DNA from: Eledone cirrhosa | Taxonomy: Eukaryota | Assembly (NCBI GenBank): GCA_964016885.1 | Contig: OZ024742.1 | Location: 110,732,001 to 110,796,000, forward strand | Length of the DNA stretch: 64,000 nt | Direction of reading: 5' to 3' | Shown: piece after piece, positions 10,499 to 62,275 of the stretch | How positions within the stretch are numbered: position 1 is the stretch's first letter | How the letters are laid out: every line of letters begins with the position of its first letter | Translations under genes and position numbers: made by a program | Notes under the pieces: generated by a model | Told to the model about the DNA's origin: nothing | The model's input: only the letters and a program-made list of their open reading frames with translations | The model's database searches: none

Positions 10499-11676
10499 GA
10501 TAAATCTACCAAGAGTTTACGGTAGTGTCCAATCCGTATGAAGAACTCAATGTAATCCGGATATCATGGAAAGAAGAGATGCATTCAAAAATCACTTTCG
10601 GTGAAAGATAAACGGAATACAGAGTCAAGATAAAGTATTAAAAAAATAATGAATAAAACAATGAAACAGTTCCTTATATTAAACAAAAAAAGTTCATTAT
10701 TTAACGATCGTTTCTAGGACATATATGTGTTAGAATTGGCATGCATATTCAACAGATCTATGTACAAAATTATACAAAATTATACAAACTATCAAATATA
10801 ATATACATACCAACACATACATATGCCGTCTTCAGAAATAATGAAATATATTTATTGATAATAACAACAATTCAAAATTACAGGTCTGTTTGGGAACAGA
10901 GTTCAAATTGACCAATGAAATACACAAAAATATAACAAGAAAATACAGTTAGGTGTGTGTATATATGTAAGTAACTTCGCTCACAGATATGCATAAAAAT
11001 ATATGTTCACATGCATACGCATGCCGAAAAAATGTATGTAAATACAAAAATTCAGGGCTAATGTCTCTGTATGTTTATAATCTACAGATAAAATACACAT
11101 ACGTATATAAACATATATACATTCATATATACACACATATACATACATTCAGTGTGAATGTATGTATATGTGTGTATATATGAATGTATATATGTTTATA
11201 TACGTATGTGTATTTTATCTGTAGATTATAAACATACAGAGACATTAGCCCTGAATTTTTGTATTTACATACATTTTTTCGGCATGCGTATGCATGTGAA
11301 CATATATTTTTATGCATATCTGTGAGCGAAGTTACTTACATATATACACACACCTAACTGTATTTTCTTGATATATTTTTGTGTATTTCATTGGTCAATT
11401 TGAACTCTGTTCCCAAACAGACCTGTAATTTTGAATTGTTGTTATTATCAATAAATATATTTCATTATTTCTGAAGACGGCATATGTATGTGTTGGTATG
11501 TATATTATATTTGATAGTTTGTATAATTTTGTATAATTTTGTACATAGATCTGTTGAATATGCATGCCAATTCTTACACATATATGTCCTAGAAACGATC
11601 GTTAAATAATGAACTTTTTTTGTTTAATATAAGGAACTGTTTCATTGTTTTATTCATTATTTTTTTAATACTTTAT
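10496..11676. mobile_element. Near-perfect palindrome of PLE family A pLTR (522-bp arms, 3-nt loop, 134-nt left tail)
   Basis: Arms 10630-11151 / 11155-11676. Homologous to the 3' ends of the PLEs at 25052-27964 and 60155-62280. (TA)n on both sides. Confidence 0.92.
11461..11613 (+). ncRNA. Type I hammerhead ribozyme with ~115-nt extended stem II
   Basis: TTCATTATTT-CTGAAGA-[long hairpin]-GAAA-C-GATC-G-TT-AAATAATGAA; perfect 10-bp stem I. Mirror copy at 10693-10845. Confidence 0.85.
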
Positions 11677-13113: not shown

Positions 13114-14912
<1,799 letters not shown>

Positions 14913-14925
14913 TATATATAAAATT

Positions 14926-18926: not shown

Positions 18927-19199
18927 GTTATATTTGGGGAGGTTATATTGTTATAATATTGTCAAAAATATATAATAAAACACACTCACTGTTTGGTTGG
19001 GGTCGCTTCTCGCTTCCATATATTTTATATCCCTATAGTTAATTTAGCTGGCAATCAATGACCAACAGTTAAACATATAGGTATAAAAATATATATAGTC
19101 TCTCAGAGTTCTTTCATCACACACTTATCATCAGTGATATTATGTTTCTCCACACACGATTTCATATCAAAAGCCTTGCAAAACAAATTCATCGCCCCT
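18922..19199 (-). mobile_element. Nematis-like PLE pLTR (minus) fused to a plus-strand tail fragment
   Basis: Homologous to 54359-54620; decayed HHR at 19103-19137; 19150-19191 resembles the family tail at 22137-22177. Confidence 0.7.
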
Positions 19200-19213
19200 T
19201 ATATATATATATA

Positions 19214-20250
19214 AGGCTTATGGAATCTCCAAGAGGATAGTGGACCTGATATCACTGCTCTACACCAACACCAAAGCCCAAGTCATTACACCTGATGGGA
19301 TGACAGAGTTCTTTGAGATACTGGCTCGAGTGCTCCAGGGAGATACATTGGCTCCCTACCTTTTTGTCATCGTAGTGGACTATTGTATGCGCCTTGCACT
19401 GGAGAAACACCAGGACTCTGGCTTTACTGTAGCACCGGCTCAGAGCAGGAGAGTTGGGGCGAAAAAGGTATCGGATGCTGAATTTGCCGACGACATAGTT
19501 TTGGTGACAAATACAGTGAAGGAGGCAGAGGATTTGATGCGGGAGGTTGAGACTGTCTCGATGAGTGTGGGGCTGAGAATGAATGAGACTAAAACAAAAT
19601 ATCTGGTAGAGAATGTTGAGAAGCCAGAGGGGATCACTAATGTAGGCGGGAAGCCGCTGGAATTGGTTGAGGACTTCCTGTATTTGGGAGCAAAGATTGG
19701 GAATACGGAAGATGGTGTGGTTGAGAGGAAGAGCAAGGCCTGGGCGGCGTGTCACAGCTTGAAATCGGTGTGGAAGTCGGACCTTCGTAGAGACCTGAAA
19801 ATCCGCCTCTTCATTGCTGTAGTGGAGTCTGTGCTGCTGTATGGGTCTGAGACTTGGACACTGACCAAGAGACTCACTCATATGGTGGATGGGTGCTACA
19901 CGAGAATGCTGAGGATGGCTCTGAACATTAATCAGTATACACTGAGGATGAAAAACTCAGAGCTGTATGGGAGCATCCCAAAAGTCAGCTCAAAAGTGAC
20001 ACAGAGGAGACTGAGGTTGGCTGGACATGCTCACCGACATACAGAGTTGACATTGCACTCAGTGCTCCTTTGGGAGCCCCTACATGGACACACTAGAAGA
20101 GGAAGACCAAGGTTAACATATGTTGATGCCCTAAGGACAGACACTGGTCTGTTGGAGATGCAGGATATGGCAGCGATAATGAGGGACAGAGACCGCTGGA
20201 GAGAACTCGTCCATGGATCTCGGGAATTTTACCCGCCTTAGATAGATAGA
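19214..20250 (+). mobile_element. 5'-truncated RTE-clade LINE; open RT/C-terminal frame 19240-20241; (TAGA)n tail
   Basis: LQGDTLAPYLFVIVVD, EFADDIVL, FLYLG, VESVLLYGSETW, RLRLAGH, RGRP motifs; inserted in (TA)n. Confidence 0.92.
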
Positions 20251-25051: not shown

Positions 25052-27961
25052 ATAAATTAATAAAAACAATGAATAAAAACAAAGAAACAGTTCCTTATAT
25101 TAAAAATTCACCATTTTACGATCGTTTCTAGGATATATATGTGTGTGTTGGTATATATATCATATAGATCTATGTAAAAATTTTACAAACTATCAGAGGG
25201 AACAAAGCCTTGATATTTGCCAAAAATAGATGAAACTTAACTATGGATGACAAACACTACTGGAATTTCAGAAGGAATACTGGACCAGAAATACATATAG
25301 TAATCTATTCGACATTACTATGGGCTCTAGTGATTCTGCCCAAATTACCGATCTTGTGGGCCTCTTTCTTCTATTTAACATAAATGCTTCTTTTCCCCCA
25401 CCTTAAAGGTGGTTTATATCGTGATGACTGTCTTCTTCTTTCCACTAACGTTAGCCTATCAGAAATTGAAAAAAATAAAAAACTTTTTAGAACTTTCCTC
25501 AAAGACTATTACAGTCTCACTATTACATTTGAAAACACCAGTAAAGTAGTTAATTTCCTTGATATAACTTTAGACTTATCTACGGGTATCTACCAACCTT
25601 ACCATAAACCTAACCAAAACTTACATTACATACACTCACAATCCAATCACCCTATATCTATCCTTGAAACCCTAGCATATAATATCTCACCTCAATATTT
25701 CTAACCTTTCATCTAACCAGGATGTATTCTATAAAAATGCGCCCTTTTATAACGAAGCTTTAGCTAGAAGCGGCCACAAAAACAAATTAATCTATATACC
25801 TTGCACCAATAATACTTCAAACATACAACCCAATATTACCAACAAACACCAAATGAAAAATACACACGTAAATGCCACTCACACTATACCCCAAAATACC
25901 AACTTAAAACTTAATTTCTCTACTTCTTCTCACATACAATATAATAACTTTCAAAAAACCATTCATCCTAATACTCCAATATATGTTAATAACATTACTA
26001 ACAAAATTCCTAATAATCAGACTAAAACACCTAAATCAGTTAATCTAACTAAACCTATATATAATAAATTCACTAATACTAACTCTCTTAGTAAACATCA
26101 GGATACATCGTATAAAAATAAAAAACAACATCGAAACCGTAATAGACGATTTACTTGGTATAATGCTCCATTTAATCTACAAATTAAAGATAATATCCCT
26201 AAAATGTTTTTTACTATCCTAGAGAAAAACTTCCCGCCAAACCATAAATACCATCAAATTTTAAATAGATCAACGGTCAAATTCTCCTACTCCACTACCA
26301 AAAATATACAACAAAATATCATGCCTACAATGCATATAAATGTAAAAGAACCATGAATATACCACCAACACATCAAACTAACCATAATACTAAAATAAAC
26401 CGCAGCAAACCACCATCTCCTTCACATACAACAAGTCAAGTAAATTCCACACCTAATTTGACTAACTCCCCTGATATAATATTCACGAATGGTTGTAACT
26501 GTAGAAACAAAGCAAATTGCCCATTAAAAGGAAATTACATTATTAATAACATAGTATATAAATGTAAAATTAGCACTAAGGACTCAACTTATTCATATAT
26601 AGGAGCTACTTCTAACCAATTTAAAGTAAGATTTAATACCCACAAACACTGTTTTTAAAATGCCGCATTAGCTAATACAACATCCTTGACTGAAATAATT
26701 AATAATTATAGAAAAAAGAATATCGATTATAACATGACCTGGAGTGTGCTCAAAAGGGCCACCCCTTATCAAAATAACAGATATGAGTGTAGATTATGTT
26801 CCCAGGAACTTTTTGAAATAATGAAATCTAAGGATATCCTATTAAATAAGCGACAAGAATTAATTATATCGTGCAATCATAGAATCAGAAGAAATTTCAC
26901 ATATTATAAACCTAATTAATATACACTTATATTTTACAAATTATTATAATTATTTTTTTTTTATTTAGTTAACCTATAATTAGTATTTTACTACTGAGAA
27001 CGTCATAATTTTATTAACGTTTTACAGCTATCTTTTCCTAAAATTAATACCTATAAGTATACATATAAACTATTTTAATTTCCTGTTATGAATCTAAATT
27101 CCTTGTAGTCTATATAAGTTTGTTATTTCTCACTAATACATTTACCCCCCCCCCCCAAATTTTTTTCCTTCGTTTTTAACAACATTCTTTAATAACATCT
27201 AACTCTTATTTATCACATCTATATGAATTAATATAAATTTATCCCTATAAGTATACCTATTAATTAAATTAATTTAATTTCTTTTTATAGATCTAAATTC
27301 CTTATGTTTTAAATAAGATTGGTATTTCTCACTAACACATTTATCCTAAAATGTTATTCTCCTTCGAATTTAACATTAGCATTATTCTTTAATAACATCA
27401 AATTTTCGTGTACCTTTCACCGGCTTGACCTCTTTTCATCCCCAAAGTAATCTTTTCATTCAAAGTATTCTTTCCATTCAAAACTGAAGTCTGCATTCCT
27501 CTACCCCTAAATTAAATTTCTACTACTACTATTCTATCAACTTGACCACTTACTACTTTTCTATTGGTCAATTCAAAACCTGTTTCCAAGCAGACCTATT
27601 ATATTAAATCATTGTTGGTCTTTTTCAATAAACAAATATCATTATTTCTTAAGACAGCATATATATGTGTAGGTATGTATATTCCCTCTGATAGTGTGTA
27701 AAATGTTAACATAGATCTATATGATATACATACCAACACACACATATATATCCTAGAAACGATCGTAAAATGATGAATTTTTTAATATAAGGAACTGTTT
27801 CTTTGTTTTTATTCATTGTTTTTTAAAATTTATCTTGACTCTGTTTTCCTGTGATTTTCATCGAAAAAATGTTTGAATACATCTTCTCTTTTCATGATAT
27901 TTGGATTACATTGAGTTCTTCATACGGATTGGACACTACCGTATATTTTGGTAGATTTGTC

Positions 27962-29355: not shown

Positions 29356-30239
29356 CGAGGTGTGTCAGAAAAGTTTCAGGACTGATGTCACAAAAGATTT
29401 ATTTCAAACCCAAACTTCACACTGAGAGTTTTCTCCTTCAAAGTAATCCCCCTAGAATATGTAACTGTAATCTTAGCTCTCTGCAGCGATCAAACTTTTT
29501 TCTTCATAATTTTATATACATGTCCCTTGTTTCAGGTCGTCAAACAATGAGCACAGAGCAACGAACAAACTTGAATTTTCTGCTACGGTTGGGGAAAACT
29601 CCGCCAGAAGCACTGGGATTGCTACAGCAAGTGTATCGAGATGAGACGATGTCACGCTCCGGTGTTTTTGAGTTGTGTAAGATGACCCCAGGAGCGGAAG
29701 GCCCTCAACAACCAGGACTGAGGTTAACGTTGAGCGCGTCAGGCAGATGGTGCATAGCGATCGTCGGCTGACTGTTCTACTGATGGCAAATGAGCTGCAC
29801 ATGAATCGGGACAGCGTCTGGAAGATTCTCACTGAAGATTTGGACATGCGGAAAGTCTGCGCGAAGATGGTGCCAAAACTGCTGAACGATGACCAGAAGG
29901 GTCGACGCATGAAAGTATGCCAGGGCATCCTAGAGCGTCTTGAAACCGAACCAGACTTGCTAGGGACAGTCATCACCGGTGATGAGTCATGGATCTTCAA
30001 GTACGACCCAGAAGAGACCCATTTTGAAGACGTGGACGACATCAAAAAGGCCGTGACGACGGAACTGCGAAGGATCCCGGAAGAATCCTTCCAGGAGTAC
30101 ATGCAAGCGTGGCAGAAAAGGATGGAAAAGTGCATTAGACTCCAGGGGGATTATTTGAAGGAGAAAACTCTTGTCTGAAGTTTGTGTTTGAAATAAATCT
30201 TTTGTGACATCAGTCCTGGAACTTTCTTGACACACTTCT
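29356..30239 (+). mobile_element. Internally deleted mariner (Tc1/mariner) DNA transposon
   Basis: ~65-bp TIRs (CGAGGTGTGTCAGAAAAGTTTCAGGACTGATGTCACAAAAG...), TA on both sides. HTH region, KMVPKLL and ITGDESW..YDPE are fused directly to the C-terminal FEDVDDIKKAV segment. Confidence 0.93.
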
Positions 30240-50780: not shown

Positions 50781-50858
50781 GTGTGTGTGTATATGTGTGT
50801 GTGTATGTATGTATATATATATGTGTGTATATGTATAAGTATCTATGTATATATATAT

Positions 50859-51603
50859 ATAATAAAGTATGAATTCCTACGTGTAAAAAATACATATAGG
50901 GAAAAAAGTATTATCCACCCATATGCCAATGTGGTTCTATGGCGGGTTAATAAATTAACAAGCCGGAACATATAAAATCGATGTCTAGCAAATAGAGAAA
51001 AAGTTTTAAAATAAATAAAAAAAAATTCGCTGTACTTACTACATGTGCCTTTACCGCGGTTTCATGCTCCAGAATAAACGGAAAATCCAAGCGGATTTCC
51101 ATTGAGAAGGGACCAATCTTGAGTAGGCTCTATATGCTAGACCTCGATTTCATATGTTCTGGCTTGTTAATTTATTAACCCGCCATAGAACCACATTGGC
51201 ATACGGTTGGATAATACTTGTTTCCCTATATGTATTTTTTACATGTAGGAATTCATACTTTATTATTATCGATCTCCCCCTATAAAATTTTGGCTGTTTG
51301 GACTGATGCTATTTCTAGTGGCAGGACATTGACCTGCCCACCCTGCCTTTTGTCTTTGCACACGGCACCAGACAGAATTATTTCTTTCATCATCCGCTCT
51401 CATTTGGTAATGGTTTTGTATGGCGGCAATTTTATATTCTCCGAGGGAGAAGAGCCTTCTGAAGATTGGTCCCTTCTCAATGGAAATCCGCTTGGATTTT
51501 CCGTTTATTCTGGAGCATGAAACCGCGGTAAAGGCACATATAGTAAGTACAGCGAATTTTTTTTAATTTATTTAAAAACTTTTTCTCTATTTGCTAGACC
51601 TCG

Positions 51604-51610
<7 letters not shown>
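50859..51610 (+). mobile_element. Retrozyme-like non-coding HHR element, family R3 (457-bp unit, ~26-bp redundancy, inverted arm spanning the unit junction)
   Basis: CTCTATWTGCTAGACCTCGATTT at 51128 and 51585; inverted arm 50859-51128; HHR 51454-51535; no real ORF; (TA)n flanks. Confidence 0.85.
51454..51535 (+). ncRNA. Type I hammerhead ribozyme (canonical core)
   Basis: GCCTT-CTGAAGA-[branched stem II]-GAAA-C-CGCG-G-TA-AAGGC; perfect 5-bp stem I. Confidence 0.88.
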
Positions 51611-51659
<49 letters not shown>

Positions 51660-56958: not shown

Positions 56959-57476
56959 ATATATATATATATATTGGTAAACGGAATAGAAAATGCTGAC
57001 AAATTGTACACAGTTGAAAAATGGTTTAATTAGGAATAAAAAGTATTAGTGATTGTATGGGTTAGTATTCAGTTGTGGTTTTAAGTTTTTAAGTTTTTAC
57101 CGGTTGCGCATTTCTAAATGCTTTTCAAAAATAATTTTGAGATAGAGTGTCCGTGCTGTTTGCTCTGATCTGATTAGTTTTGGGAATTCTACCTGTTTTT
57201 ATGTTAAAAAAGTGGCTCCAGCGTTATTTTTGTGTTGCAAAAATGCTTGTGGTCAAAACAATTTTGATTGGTTGGTAGAGGTCATGTGAATGTAAAAAGT
57301 TGATTTTGCGCCAAGACTGTTTTTATGTTAAAATGTTAAAAAAGTGGCTCCAGCAAAAATTCTTGGTCAAAACAATTTTGATTGGACGGTAGAGGTCATG
57401 TGGATAAAAAATTGGTTTTGCGCCAAGATTGAGAAATGACTCTTTCACAACAAATATGTGTGTGTGTGTGTGTGTA

Positions 57477-58166: not shown

Positions 58167-59708
58167 TTAGGGAGAAGTGTTTAGACGGGGTCCGTATTTG
58201 TTAATGAAGTAAGATTCCTTGCTGATGCGCTGGGTGTGGGTGGCATTATCTTTAAATTTGTAGAGGGGAAAGATTCTGAAGTTGGGATGATTTTGGGCGG
58301 CACAGGTATCAATGTGTTCACTCAGTGGTATTTTCCTGTATTCCCGTATTTTGATTTGGGATCTATGGACAGTCATGCGTTGGCGGAGGCTGTTTTTGGT
58401 CTGGCCTATGTATTGTTCTCGACAACTTGAACAAGTTAATACATATATTAGATTTTCCGATGCACATGTGAAATTGTGTTTTACTATAAAACGTTGTCCA
58501 TCTTTGAAATAGAATTCCGAACCCTCTATTAGGTTGATGCAAATGCCACAGTTGGGTCTATCGCATTTTTTTACTGTGGGTTTCGTTGTTGTGGTTGGCA
58601 GTACTTTGGCATGTGTTAAGATGTTTTTCATTGACTTGGATTGTCTTTTGCTCTTTATGATATCGTGTGTTCGTAGAATTTGGTTCATTCTATGGTCCTT
58701 TTTCAATACAGGGATGTTCTGGAGGATGGTGTCAAAGGCCTCATTGTTGAGGGGGTTGTGTGTGGAGATGTATGGAAGAGCTTTTAGTTTTGGTTGATTT
58801 ACTTTAGGGTGTCTAAGGTCCTGGGTACTGAGTTTTAGGGCACGTTGGATTCCATTGTCAATTAGTGATGCAGGGTAGTCCCTGCCTATGAGTGTGTCCT
58901 TTAGTTCTTGTAGCCGTATGTAGCAGATGTTTTTATTGGAGACTATAGTACAGATTCTCTTGGCTAAGTTGTAGGGAATATTAATTTTAACGTGTCTATG
59001 GTGGCAAGAGTTGAAGGGGAGGTATTGCTTGGAGTCTGTGGGCTTGTAGTATATGTCTGTTTCTATTTTCTTGTTATGGATCTTAATGAGGATGTCGAGG
59101 AAGGGGAGTTGTTGATGGCTGTATTCCATCGTGAAGTTAATATTTGTGTTGAGCCCATTTATAAGGGTGTGAAATTCTTTAAGTTTTTCGATGTTTTCGT
59201 GCCAAAGGATGAAGCAGTCATCTAGATATCGCTTCCAGTTCCTTTCAATGTGTAAGTGGAGGGTGTTTCCAAATTTGTTTAGGACTTTAGTGTAGAGGGT
59301 GATTTCCAGGTATCCCATGACTAGGTTGGCATAAGTAGGGGCTGTTTTCGTTCCCATAGCGGTCCCAGATTTCTGCCTGTAGGGTTTGTTATTGAAAACG
59401 AAGTAATTGTTCTTCAAGATAAATTTGAGTCCCTCTATCACGAATTCTTTTTTGATGCGTTGTTGGAGTTCATTGTGGAAATTATCCAGCCAGAATTGGA
59501 TAGCTTCTATTCCTAGGTTGTGGGGGATGTTGGAGTATAGTTTGATTACATCGAAAGTCACTAGTAGGGTTTGTTCAGAAAGTGGCATATTAGGGAGGTG
59601 ATTGAGCATATCTAGGTCGTCCCTTATATAGCTTTTGATGTGCTTGAGGAAGGGTTTGAGAAGGGTATCAATGAAGTTGCTAAGACGGTGCGTTTCGCAA
59701 GCGGGGCC
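58167..59708 (-). CDS. PLE reverse transcriptase + GIY-YIG endonuclease (N-truncated, uninterrupted)
   Basis: FDVIKLYSNIP, GTAMGT..APTYA, RYLDD, LPFLD, CDRPNCGIC zinc knuckle, LIY..C..C..YIGQT..R..H. Frame stays open 33 codons upstream of the listed Met, up to the truncation junction. Confidence 0.93.
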   Translation of the reverse strand, partial: GPACETHRLSNFIDTLLKPFLKHIKSYIRDDLDMLNHLPNMPLSEQTLLVTFDVIKLYSNIPHNLGIEAIQFWLDNFHNELQQRIKKEFVIEGLKFILKNNYFVFNNKPYRQKSGTAMGTKTAPTYANLVMGYLEITLYTKVLNKFGNTLHLHIERNWKRYLDDCFILWHENIEKLKEFHTLINGLNTNINFTMEYSHQQLPFLDILIKIHNKKIETDIYYKPTDSKQYLPFNSCHHRHVKINIPYNLAKRICTIVSNKNICYIRLQELKDTLIGRDYPASLIDNGIQRALKLSTQDLRHPKVNQPKLKALPYISTHNPLNNEAFDTILQNIPVLKKDHRMNQILRTHDIIKSKRQSKSMKNILTHAKVLPTTTTKPTVKKCDRPNCGICINLIEGSEFYFKDGQRFIVKHNFTCASENLIYVLTCSSCREQYIGQTKNSLRQRMTVHRSQIKIREYRKIPLSEHIDTCAAQNHPNFRIFPLYKFKDNATHTQRISKESYFINKYGPRLNTSP

Positions 59709-59873
59709 TTTACATTCACATGACCTCTACCGACCAATCAAAATTGTTTTGACCACAAGCATTTTTGCAACACAAAAATAACGCTGGAGCCACTTTTTTA
59801 ACATAAAAACAGGTAGAATTCCCAAAACTAATCAGATCAGAGCAAACAGCACGGACACTCTATCTCAAAATAA

Positions 59874-59910
59874 TTTTTGAAAAGCATTTAGAAATGCGCA
59901 ACCGGTAAAA
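59874..59910 (+). ncRNA. Non-canonical hammerhead-like motif (UUGAAAA / GCAA core)
   Basis: TTT-TTGAAAA-GCATTT-AG-AAATGC-GCAA-C-CG-G-TA-AAA; also at 56659-56695 (-), 56770-56806 (+) and 57095-57131 (-). Confidence 0.6.
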
Positions 59911-60067
59911 GCTTAAAAACTTAAAACCACAACTGAATACTAACCCATACAATCACTAATACTCTTTTATTCCTAATTAAACCATTTTTCAACTGTGAAC
60001 AATTTGTCAGCATTTTCTATTCCGTTTACCAATATATAATAACTTGTGTGTTACACCTCTATTCTTT

Positions 60068-60154
<87 letters not shown>

Positions 60155-60157
<3 letters not shown>

Positions 60158-61124
60158 GATAAATCTACCAAAAGTTTACGGTAGTGTCCAATCAGTATGA
60201 AGAACTCAATGTAATCCGGATATCATGAAAAGAGAAGATGCATTCAAAAACTACTTTCGGTGAAAAATAAACGGAAGACAGAGTCAAGATAAATTAATAA
60301 AATAATGAATAAACAAAGAAACAGTTCCTTATATTAAAAAAATTCATCATTTTACGTTCGTTTCTAGGATATATATGTGTTAGAGTTGGTATGCATATTC
60401 TATAGATCTATGTACAATATTTATACAAACTATCAGAGAGAATATACATACCTACACATATATATGCTGTCTTCAGAAATAATGATATTTGTTTATTGAA
60501 AAAAACAAAGATTCAATACAATAGGTCTGTTTGGGAACAGGTTTTGAATTGACCAATAGAGAGATAGTGAGGGTCAGGATAGTAATATAGTAGTAGAAGA
60601 ACCTTAAATTATGGGTAGAGGAAGGTAGAATTCAGTTTTGGATGGAAAAGAATATTATGAATGAAGGATTATTTTAGGGAAGAAATAGGTCTTATGCTGA
60701 CCTCAGAAATAATTTTATTTTTTCAATTTTTCATTGAATAAAACCAACAAAGATCTAATATATTCTGTCTGTTTGGTAAGAGGTTTAGAATTAACCAATA
60801 GAAAGTTAATAATTGGCCAAATGGTAAAATAGTAGTAATTGAAGCTTATTTTAGGGGTGAAAATAGGTCAGGTGGTCAGTAAAAGGTATACAAGCAGTTG
60901 ATGTTATAAAATAGTAATGCCAATACAAATATCTAAGGTGACTAAAGTTTTAAGATAAGAATGTTAGTGAAAAAAATACATCTATGAAAAGAATATAAAT
61001 TAATTTAATTGATGGGTATATTTATATTGATAAAATTATACTAATACATATAGATATGATAAATAAGAGTTAGATGCAGTTGAAAAGTGCTGTTAAAGAT
61101 GAGGGGAAATTAAAAGAATATAAA

Positions 61125-61157
<33 letters not shown>

Positions 61158-62275
61158 CTCATACATATATATTTATACATATATATACACATACAGACAT
61201 ATATATATATATATATATATATATACACTTATATATATATATATATATACATATATATACACATACACACACACACATACACACATATATATATATACAT
61301 ATACATATAAATACACATATATATATATATACATAGATATATACATGCATATATACATACATACACATACATATACACACATATATACACTTATATATAC
61401 ATATAATTATTGGGGGGGGGATTAAATTTATTAGTGAGAAATAGTAAATATATATAGTTTTCAAGGAACATAGAGTCATAACCTGAAGTTAAAGCATTAT
61501 ATATGTTTACTTAATGGTATCAGTTTTAGGAAATGATATTTGTAAGAAGGAAAGCAAAATTATGTAGTTCATCAGTAGTAGAATATTAATTATAGATTAA
61601 CTAAATTAAAAATAGTTTATATATTAATTTCAAAAGTGTATATTAATTAGGTTTATCATTTTTAAAGCAGAATTATGTAGTTCATCAGTAGTAGAATATT
61701 AATTATAGGTTAACTAAATTAAAAATAATTTATAAATTAATTTCTAAAGTGTATATTAATTAGGTTTATAATATTTAAAGGTTTTTCTCAGTTTATGATT
61801 ACACGATATTATTAATTCCTAAAGTACCAGTAATGCACTGGGTAATTGCTGGCCTTGCGCCTAAAGTAGAAACAATTATTAATTCCTGTCGCTTATTTAA
61901 TAGGATATCCTTAGATTTCATTATTTCAAAAAGTTCTTGGGAACATAATCTACATTCATTTCTACTATTTTGATAAGGGGTGGCCCTTTTGAGCACACTC
62001 CAGGTCAGGTCATATTCTATATTCCTCTTTCTATAACTATTTATTATTTCAGCTAGAGATGTTGTATTAGCTAGTGCGGCATTTTTAAAGCTATGTTTGT
62101 GGGTATTAAATCTTACCTTAAATTTGTTAGAGGTAGCTCCTATATATCAATAAATTGAGTCCTTAGTGAAAACTTTACATTTATATACTATGTTATTAAC
62201 AAGGCAATTTCCTTTTAATGGACAGTTTGCCTTGTTTCTACAGTTACAACTTTTCGTGAATATATATATATATCG

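Follow-up and report, generated by a model that had tools for sequence, protein, structure and literature searches.

Animal non-LTR retrozymes are non-coding, AT-rich units that span a few hundred bases and contain a type I hammerhead ribozyme; they occur as monomers, partial tandems and long arrays in genomes that also contain coding Penelope-like elements (PMC7229834; bioRxiv 10.64898/2026.07.22.740005). They have been described as non-autonomous Penelope-like elements (bioRxiv 10.64898/2026.07.22.740005). Penelope-like elements are typically found as a partial tandem with an inverted, 5'-truncated copy and a tail of 30-40 bp at one end (PMC8557442, PMC3846280). The endonuclease-bearing members show 5' truncation, partial tandems, an inverted 5'-truncated partner and a single-end tail, as well as a hammerhead upstream of two start sites, an AT-rich target and possibly a retained intron (PMC8557442, PMC3846280, PMC11167929), and the Hydra clade targets (TA)n (PMC8557442, section 11). 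In the anole element, two internal start sites of reverse transcription bound the tail, both DNA strands are extended, and the protein is predicted to be dimeric (PMC11167929). The minimal, dimer-dependent hammerheads of Penelope-like elements combine a long helix II and a 5-bp helix I with a palindromic helix III that is predicted to form between two copies (PMC4209133).

The features listed for the retrozymes, the endonuclease-bearing elements, the Hydra clade and the minimal hammerheads recur in family A, a repeat of Eledone cirrhosa with a copy at 50859..51610 of the window, the 64,000-nt stretch of contig OZ024742.1 (assembly GCA_964016885.1) that was analysed here. Judged from its sequence, the family belongs, as a new member, to the known class of animal non-LTR retrozymes, i.e., of non-autonomous Penelope-like elements. 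Its unit of 487 nt compares with 170-400 nt (PMC7229834) and 51-972 nt (bioRxiv 10.64898/2026.07.22.740005) for described retrozymes, from which it differs by a very long stem II. Its insertion ends could furthermore be mapped to two fixed sites, one of each per insertion, whereas the retrozyme descriptions cited here give no such mapping. Compared with the endonuclease-bearing elements, family A has no ORF and a tail of 110-117 nt instead of 30-40 nt; compared with the minimal dimer-dependent hammerheads, it has an extra hairpin of about 40 nt in loop II and is matched by no Rfam hammerhead model. The locus is very probably a two-armed, head-to-head insertion of this non-coding 487-nt hammerhead repeat into (TA)n, likely made by a borrowed Penelope-like reverse transcriptase/endonuclease that would prime at the unit end and 113 nt further on, with a circle or an uncut tandem RNA as template.

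The window locus consists of two head-to-head arms of one repeat, each with its outer end in (TA)n, as follows:

50850..50858, unstranded: (TA)n target tract that borders the minus arm at its 3' end, within a longer TA/TG microsatellite from about 50720
50859..50971, minus strand: tail of the minus arm (unit 1-113), which stops at the second fixed 3' end of the family
50972..51131, minus strand: 5'-truncated unit end of the minus arm (unit 298-457); the junction to the tail lies between 50972 and 50971
51047..51128, minus strand: hammerhead copy of the minus arm, with a mutated core (CTCAAGA), a mismatched stem I and a predicted cut position after 51052
51128..51131, unstranded: 4-nt overlap of the arms (CTCT), where both 5' ends meet
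51128..51153, plus strand: start of the plus arm, the final 26 nt of a preceding unit (24/26 identical to 51585-51610)
51154..51610, plus strand: full unit, 457 nt in the window copy, which stops at the first fixed 3' end of the family
51454..51535, plus strand: type I hammerhead motif of the plus arm, with a predicted cut after 51530
51543..51597, plus strand: possible 55-nt GT-AG intron (GTAAGT...TTTGCTAG)
51611..51656, unstranded: (TA)n target tract that borders the plus arm at its 3' end

From 51131 to 50859, the minus arm reads unit positions 298-457 and then 1-113 without a gap (blastn E values of 3e-73 and 5e-58); its unit end is identical to 51451-51610 at 154 of 160 positions, and its tail to 51154-51266 at 108 of 113. 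This confirms the first-pass annotation, which had the minus strand reading from unit end into unit start and about 110 nt further and had quoted the junction letters correctly, with the start moved from 51128 to 51131. The plus arm, too, spans the end-to-start junction (via 51128-51153). The unit size of 457 nt given earlier is that of a deleted copy: relative to the family unit of 486-487 nt, to which the other aligned full units mostly conform, the window unit is short by 9 nt after 51281 and by 21 nt after 51423. The putative intron is unsupported and was present in all of the spanning genomic pieces (0/130 without it); at the matching position, sister family B is missing the acceptor AG. 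The window locus, which has a tail end on the left and a unit end on the right, is typical of the family, and its 4-nt arm overlap falls within the gap of -12 to +30 nt that separates the head-to-head 5' ends across 52 two-armed insertions.

A search of the 3.0-Gb genome with the family repeat returned 2520 first-look candidates, which are not copy numbers, and 40 of these were scored. The repeat is an abundant, dispersed, non-coding family, with one copy at the window locus. Seven DNA searches, with 30 loci kept from each, gave a non-random sample of best-scoring loci, from which 131 distinct insertions were parsed, 86 of family A and 45 of sister family B, which is 73% identical to family A. 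The array windows (L025, L027, L028, and L061-L063) and exact duplicates were left out of the insertion counts, whereas the duplicated loci L021/L022 and L276-L278, all single-armed, were counted separately. The longest ATG-started frame in a two-unit stretch was 51 aa; a 44-aa frame from unit position 1 was considered as the start of a helper ORF and discarded, as sister family B stops at codon 12. As in animal non-LTR retrozymes, the short non-coding unit (486-487 nt) is joined head to tail, in partial tandems, including loci with two to three units, and in one array of 19 units. Further non-coding relatives were a 459-nt family, an intermediate between families A and B, and a more distant family at 13.5-14.9 kb of the window; the short unit is likewise found in families B and C. 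The distant relative (13520-14920) is a two-armed insertion with a longer unit, a type I hammerhead at about 14470-14555 with a long stem II and a CCATGG palindrome, and a tail that is partly homologous to that of family A. The flanks of L008, L011, L017, L019, L021, L022, and L026 contained another very common short repeat, in many cases as an inverted pair, on the opposite side of the same (TA)n tracts; it is probably another Penelope-type non-coding family.

The outer 3' ends of the insertions fell on two fixed sites, and the 5' ends were scattered, a combination of variable 5' truncation and fixed 3' ends that is the footprint of Penelope-like elements. The unit end (unit position 486) accounted for 62/128 of the 3' ends in family A and 42/60 in family B, and the second site, +110 to +117 past the unit end, accounted for 49/128 and 16/60, respectively. 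By a strict test, (TA)n adjoined the outer 3' ends in 107/128 cases in family A and 56/60 in family B (163/188 together), which marks a microsatellite or AT-rich target. Among the two-armed, tails-out insertions of family A, 35 paired a tail with a unit end, one had two tails, none had two unit ends, and six had an unclassified end; the corresponding numbers for family B were 13, none, one, and two. One arm per site was thus found in 48 of the 50 classifiable two-armed insertions (48/58 overall, including the eight with an unclassified end), so that an inverted, 5'-truncated partner and a single-end tail are present as in Penelope-like elements, with a tail that exceeds the published 30-40 nt. 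This pairing is not a product of the queries, because the searches constrain one arm at most. Furthermore, both arms carried the same subfamily alleles at three markers in 30/31, 36/36, and 45/45 pairs, compared with 49-66% expected by chance; therefore, both arms come from one source lineage. A full-text search of the literature found no quantified one-of-each end rule, and the 'tail at one end' is described there qualitatively.

The family hammerhead, as seen in the plus arm of the window, is of type I, with stem I GCCTT/AAGGC, the core motifs CTGAAGA (51459-51465) and GAAA (51519-51522), and a GUA triplet. Its stem II is long and contains an inner hairpin, and its stem III is a loop-less CCGCGG palindrome. 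In the minus arm, CTCAAGA stands in place of CTGAAGA and stem I is mismatched. The GAAA at about 51487 had been considered as part of the ribozyme; it has no stem I, and it was dropped once the sister family revealed the true 3' half. The first-pass annotation had called the plus-strand core canonical, and all conserved core bases are indeed present; the surrounding architecture departs from the canonical form by a U.U at the base of stem II, a G-G mismatch within stem II that is found in the window lineage, and the loop-less palindromic stem III. As in the retrozymes, each unit has a type I hammerhead; the core was intact in 88/104 dispersed pieces, and the U.U was present in 103/110 pieces. 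The axolotl ribozyme HHR_Amex2 has the same U.U base and is active in vitro with weak cutting (PMC7229834). A minor subfamily of family A (L238 and L248) has G.U replacing U.U, together with several linked compensatory changes.

The stem II pair 344/393 covaried (59 U-A, 12 A-U, 2 G.U, 1 U.G, and 3 mismatched, with one vote per insertion; p 4e-12), counts that reflect few events because the copies are related and not independent; the pair 346/391 changed from C-G to U-A in 9 pieces, and compensatory changes in stem II were also found between the sister families. Folding of the monomer recovered stems I and II without stem III (z of -0.94 for the window copy and -2.10 for another copy). Circular folding of the B and C monomers gave z of -2.2 to -2.9 (30 shuffles), values that have no bearing on circularity. 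Rfam returned no hammerhead match among the 150 of 179 rows listed for the window scan or among the 6 rows of a 221-nt scan, likely because of the long stem II. As far as base sequences can tell, the hammerhead is real and its fold is conserved, and cleavage is predicted.

The position of the ribozyme determines what the flagged junction can show. Between the predicted cut after 51530 and the unit end at 51610, further downstream, there are 80 nt; the junction is inside any linear cut-to-cut RNA, and therefore reading across it requires neither ligation nor a circle. The junction does not by itself show that a circular RNA existed. The earlier claim that head-to-tail joining was already present in the template, as a circle or concatemer, thus stands in that the join was not made at this locus and recurs in most family insertions, and it goes too far in its circular form. 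The first-pass annotation had also held that copies linked to a reverse transcriptase ORF would make the junction an ordinary boundary between pLTR and 5' UTR. None of the 131 insertions is such a copy of the family, although the arrangement does exist by analogy in the coding Penelope-like elements of the E. cirrhosa genome. These have the order hammerhead, end 1, tail, end 2, and ATG, and they read through the equivalent junction and the tail into their own ORF. The tails ahead of the ATG are about 65 and 40 nt in Neptune-like families, and a Hydra-like coding family has an 89-nt tail up to the ATG of a 709-aa ORF with RWR, SNKT, and CxCx5C motifs (clade features according to PMC8557442, section 11). 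In this Hydra-like family, 30 loci included six tails-out insertions in which both ends could be seen, and all six (6/6) followed the one-of-each end rule. The informative feature is instead that the arms read through the cut site, an observation that a circle and an uncut tandem transcript explain equally well.

No clear nucleotide homology to a coding partner was found among 50 GIY-YIG loci, 60 Neptune/Hydra loci with 20 longer Neptune stretches, and 42 further Hydra-clade loci, in a genome that holds many further Penelope-like families (about 89,000 first-look candidates). Profile searches of the coding Penelope-like loci matched only non-coding units of the family or its sisters and none of the coding families' own ends, and pairwise similarity to the coding 5' regions gave marginal scores (rows from a family A segment that ends in a TA repeat were left out). 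In tblastn searches of 300-nt flanks with four proteins, 0/131 insertions, all from best-scoring loci, continued in-strand into an ORF with reverse transcriptase and GIY-YIG, as an autonomous element would; two abutting Penelope-like flank matches that were examined were neighbours on the opposite strand. Tail lengths in the Hydra-like coding families of the genome are 89 and 97 nt, and in several of these families the hammerhead has a long stem II and a CC..GG or palindromic stem III, although clear nucleotide homology between family A and the sampled Hydra-like families was not found. The Neptune-like families share (TA)n targeting, a CCTT/AAGG stem I, and a CCGG palindrome with family A. 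The long tails and the long stem II lean toward the Hydra clade as helper, and stem I and the CCGG palindrome are similar to those of a Neptune-like family.

At L357:4847-7043 (G000:C1:337.84 Mb), a family A arm lies head to head with a 5'-truncated Hydra-like element, with no TA between them, which is either a chimeric two-template insertion or two neighbouring insertions. This case (L059/L357) was considered as proof of the helper and set aside as ambiguous; it is a single case, and both arms end at tails, contrary to the rule.

Microsatellites and palindromes are abundant in the window, and an inverted arm could arise there by local DNA rearrangement or as an assembly artefact. Existing evidence already contradicts this origin, which we regard as extremely improbable: the arms of the window locus disagree at 11/273 bases, the unit join over 160 nt of the minus arm is not obtainable by a simple fold-back of the plus arm, the layout with fixed outer ends is common to 58 insertions, and opposite-strand joints are also found in independent contigs of public DNA-like runs (three, from one sample). 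It is likewise improbable, though less so, that the unit belongs, merely as pLTR and leader, to a long coding Penelope-like element whose truncated debris makes up the short copies. The coding families do show the same order of hammerhead, end 1, tail, end 2, and ATG, and the sampling was biased toward best matches. On the other hand, in the 131 insertions (86 of family A and 45 of family B) the tail either stops or is followed by the remainder of the 487-nt unit, no in-strand Penelope-like ORF follows on from any outer flank, and families B and C share the short unit. Among the matches listed, the loose contig ends past the tail were TA repeat, another simple repeat, or unit variants.

We consider the chances even that the template was a covalently closed 487-nt circle, in which case hammerheads would cut a tandem transcript, a host ligase would close the monomer, and the reverse transcriptase would circle from both priming sites. 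The predicted cut site is crossed by 108/138 arms of family A and 55/62 arms of family B, and it is crossed two or three times by 25/138 and 20/62 arms, respectively; in arms with two complete ribozymes, all cores were intact in 10/15 (family A) and 16/18 (family B). The fold is under selection, so that cutting seems important, yet the cut sites of the copied templates are intact. First and second units showed no clear inherited differences except at CpG and homopolymer positions, at a single non-CpG site (three B insertions), and in one triplicated locus, and retrozyme circles have been documented for coral, mussel, and axolotl (PMC7229834). However, equal read-through is shown by coding elements of 3-4.7 kb, most arms are shorter than 1.3 units, insertion-private alleles common to all units are rare (7/219 in family A and 1/183 in family B), and the 19-unit array is not one rolling run. 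Uncut RNA was furthermore the main in vitro substrate of the anole element, whose ribozyme mutants inserted normally (PMC11167929), and 8/9 Xenopus dimers remained uncut in vitro (bioRxiv 10.64898/2026.07.22.740005).

Another serious candidate for the template, at a probability somewhat below even, is a tandem transcript that is linear, either uncut or cut in part, and derives from donor loci of at least two units, with no circle. Donor loci of two to three units are present, and the weak ribozyme architecture (U.U in 103/110 pieces, loop-less stem III) suggests slow cutting that may depend on a dimer or a protein. The distribution of 5' ends bears on both templates. In family B, 10/57 fell within 20 nt after the cut, compared with 0-5 in the other bins, and one lay exactly there, as for the 5' end of a ribozyme-made RNA; four of these ten, however, are at a single TATA microhomology with the target, and the sampling was biased to short extensions. 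Family A shows no such fixed 5' boundary and no pile-up at the cut (10/125 in the 20 nt after it versus 11, 11, 12, and 3 in the four bins before it), which favours the circle. Moreover, linear tandems should shorten over generations by repeated 5' truncation unless they are regenerated.

The 19-unit array of family A is located at C1:176.444-176.453 Mb (L061-L062, G000:C1:176443900-176453320). Its interior units share alleles (349A in 15/19, 352G in 14/19, 444A and 156A in 13/19 each, and 43C in 12/19) that neither terminal unit carries and that hardly occur among dispersed copies, and units 11-13 form a sub-block. The homogenised interior alleles and the sub-block rule out the array as a rolling-circle product. 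The array was expanded at the DNA level and is a retrozyme turning into a satellite by DNA-level exchange.

Other elements of the window and the genome belong to related groups. A 5'-truncated Neptune-like element at 58167-59726 (minus strand), with reverse transcriptase and GIY-YIG, a 519-aa open frame, and an inverted partner, has its ends at 56960-57300 and 59709-60070 and contains a hammerhead-like motif with a U3-A8 core variant and GCAA replacing GAAA. A young, abundant Neptune-like family (L205, G000:C4:28495000-28504999; L175-L224) gave 150 scored matches that were 95-100% identical in protein sequence, and many of these have an open frame of 775 aa; the core of the family's hammerhead is TTGAAAA (U3-A8 variant), and its tail is about 65 nt. 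Hydra-like Penelope fragments were found at 1431-2960, 25384-27820, and 61000-62150 of the window, and a hammerhead-like motif with a TGCGCA palindrome lies near 2850-2910. A perfect 522-nt inverted repeat with a 3-nt centre at 10630-11676 is related to Hydra-like 3' regions, and its 100% complementarity could reflect a very recent origin or an assembly fold-back. The window also contains a LINE-type reverse transcriptase fragment (Pfam RVT_1) at 19138-20241 (plus strand), and a fragment at 29681-30178 (plus strand) that may resemble a mariner-type transposase.

What is read directly from the copies, namely two arms with variable 5' ends and with 3' ends at two fixed sites, TA targeting, a conserved hammerhead fold, and no ORF, could be accommodated by the following course of insertion. 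A tandem copy would be transcribed, and a Penelope-like protein, probably of the Hydra clade and possibly of the Neptune clade, would nick both strands of a (TA)n tract. Reverse transcription would then be primed by each DNA end, at one or the other of two sites within the RNA; both cDNAs would extend back through cut sites and unit junctions and stop at variable points, and the two cDNAs would be joined 5' to 5' through microhomology. The flagged junction at this locus would correspond to priming site 1, viewed from the arm that began at priming site 2. We tentatively propose, at a likelihood somewhat below even, that a Penelope-type enzyme pair copies one small, ribozyme-made circle from two fixed sites 113 nt apart, one per nicked end of the TA repeat, and for more than one round.

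If this is true, retrotransposition from a circular template, as proposed for animal retrozymes, would have left its genomic footprint in the one-of-each rule (48/50) and in the arms that extend over as many as three intact ribozymes, with tails at three times the published length. The one-of-each end rule, which was found in two non-coding families and one coding family, predicts a single complex that primes two DNA ends at different RNA sites. The locus itself is ordinary; the family, being compact, lends itself to testing how the tandem and inverted insertions of Penelope-like elements are built, and also whether retrozyme circles are real transposition templates.
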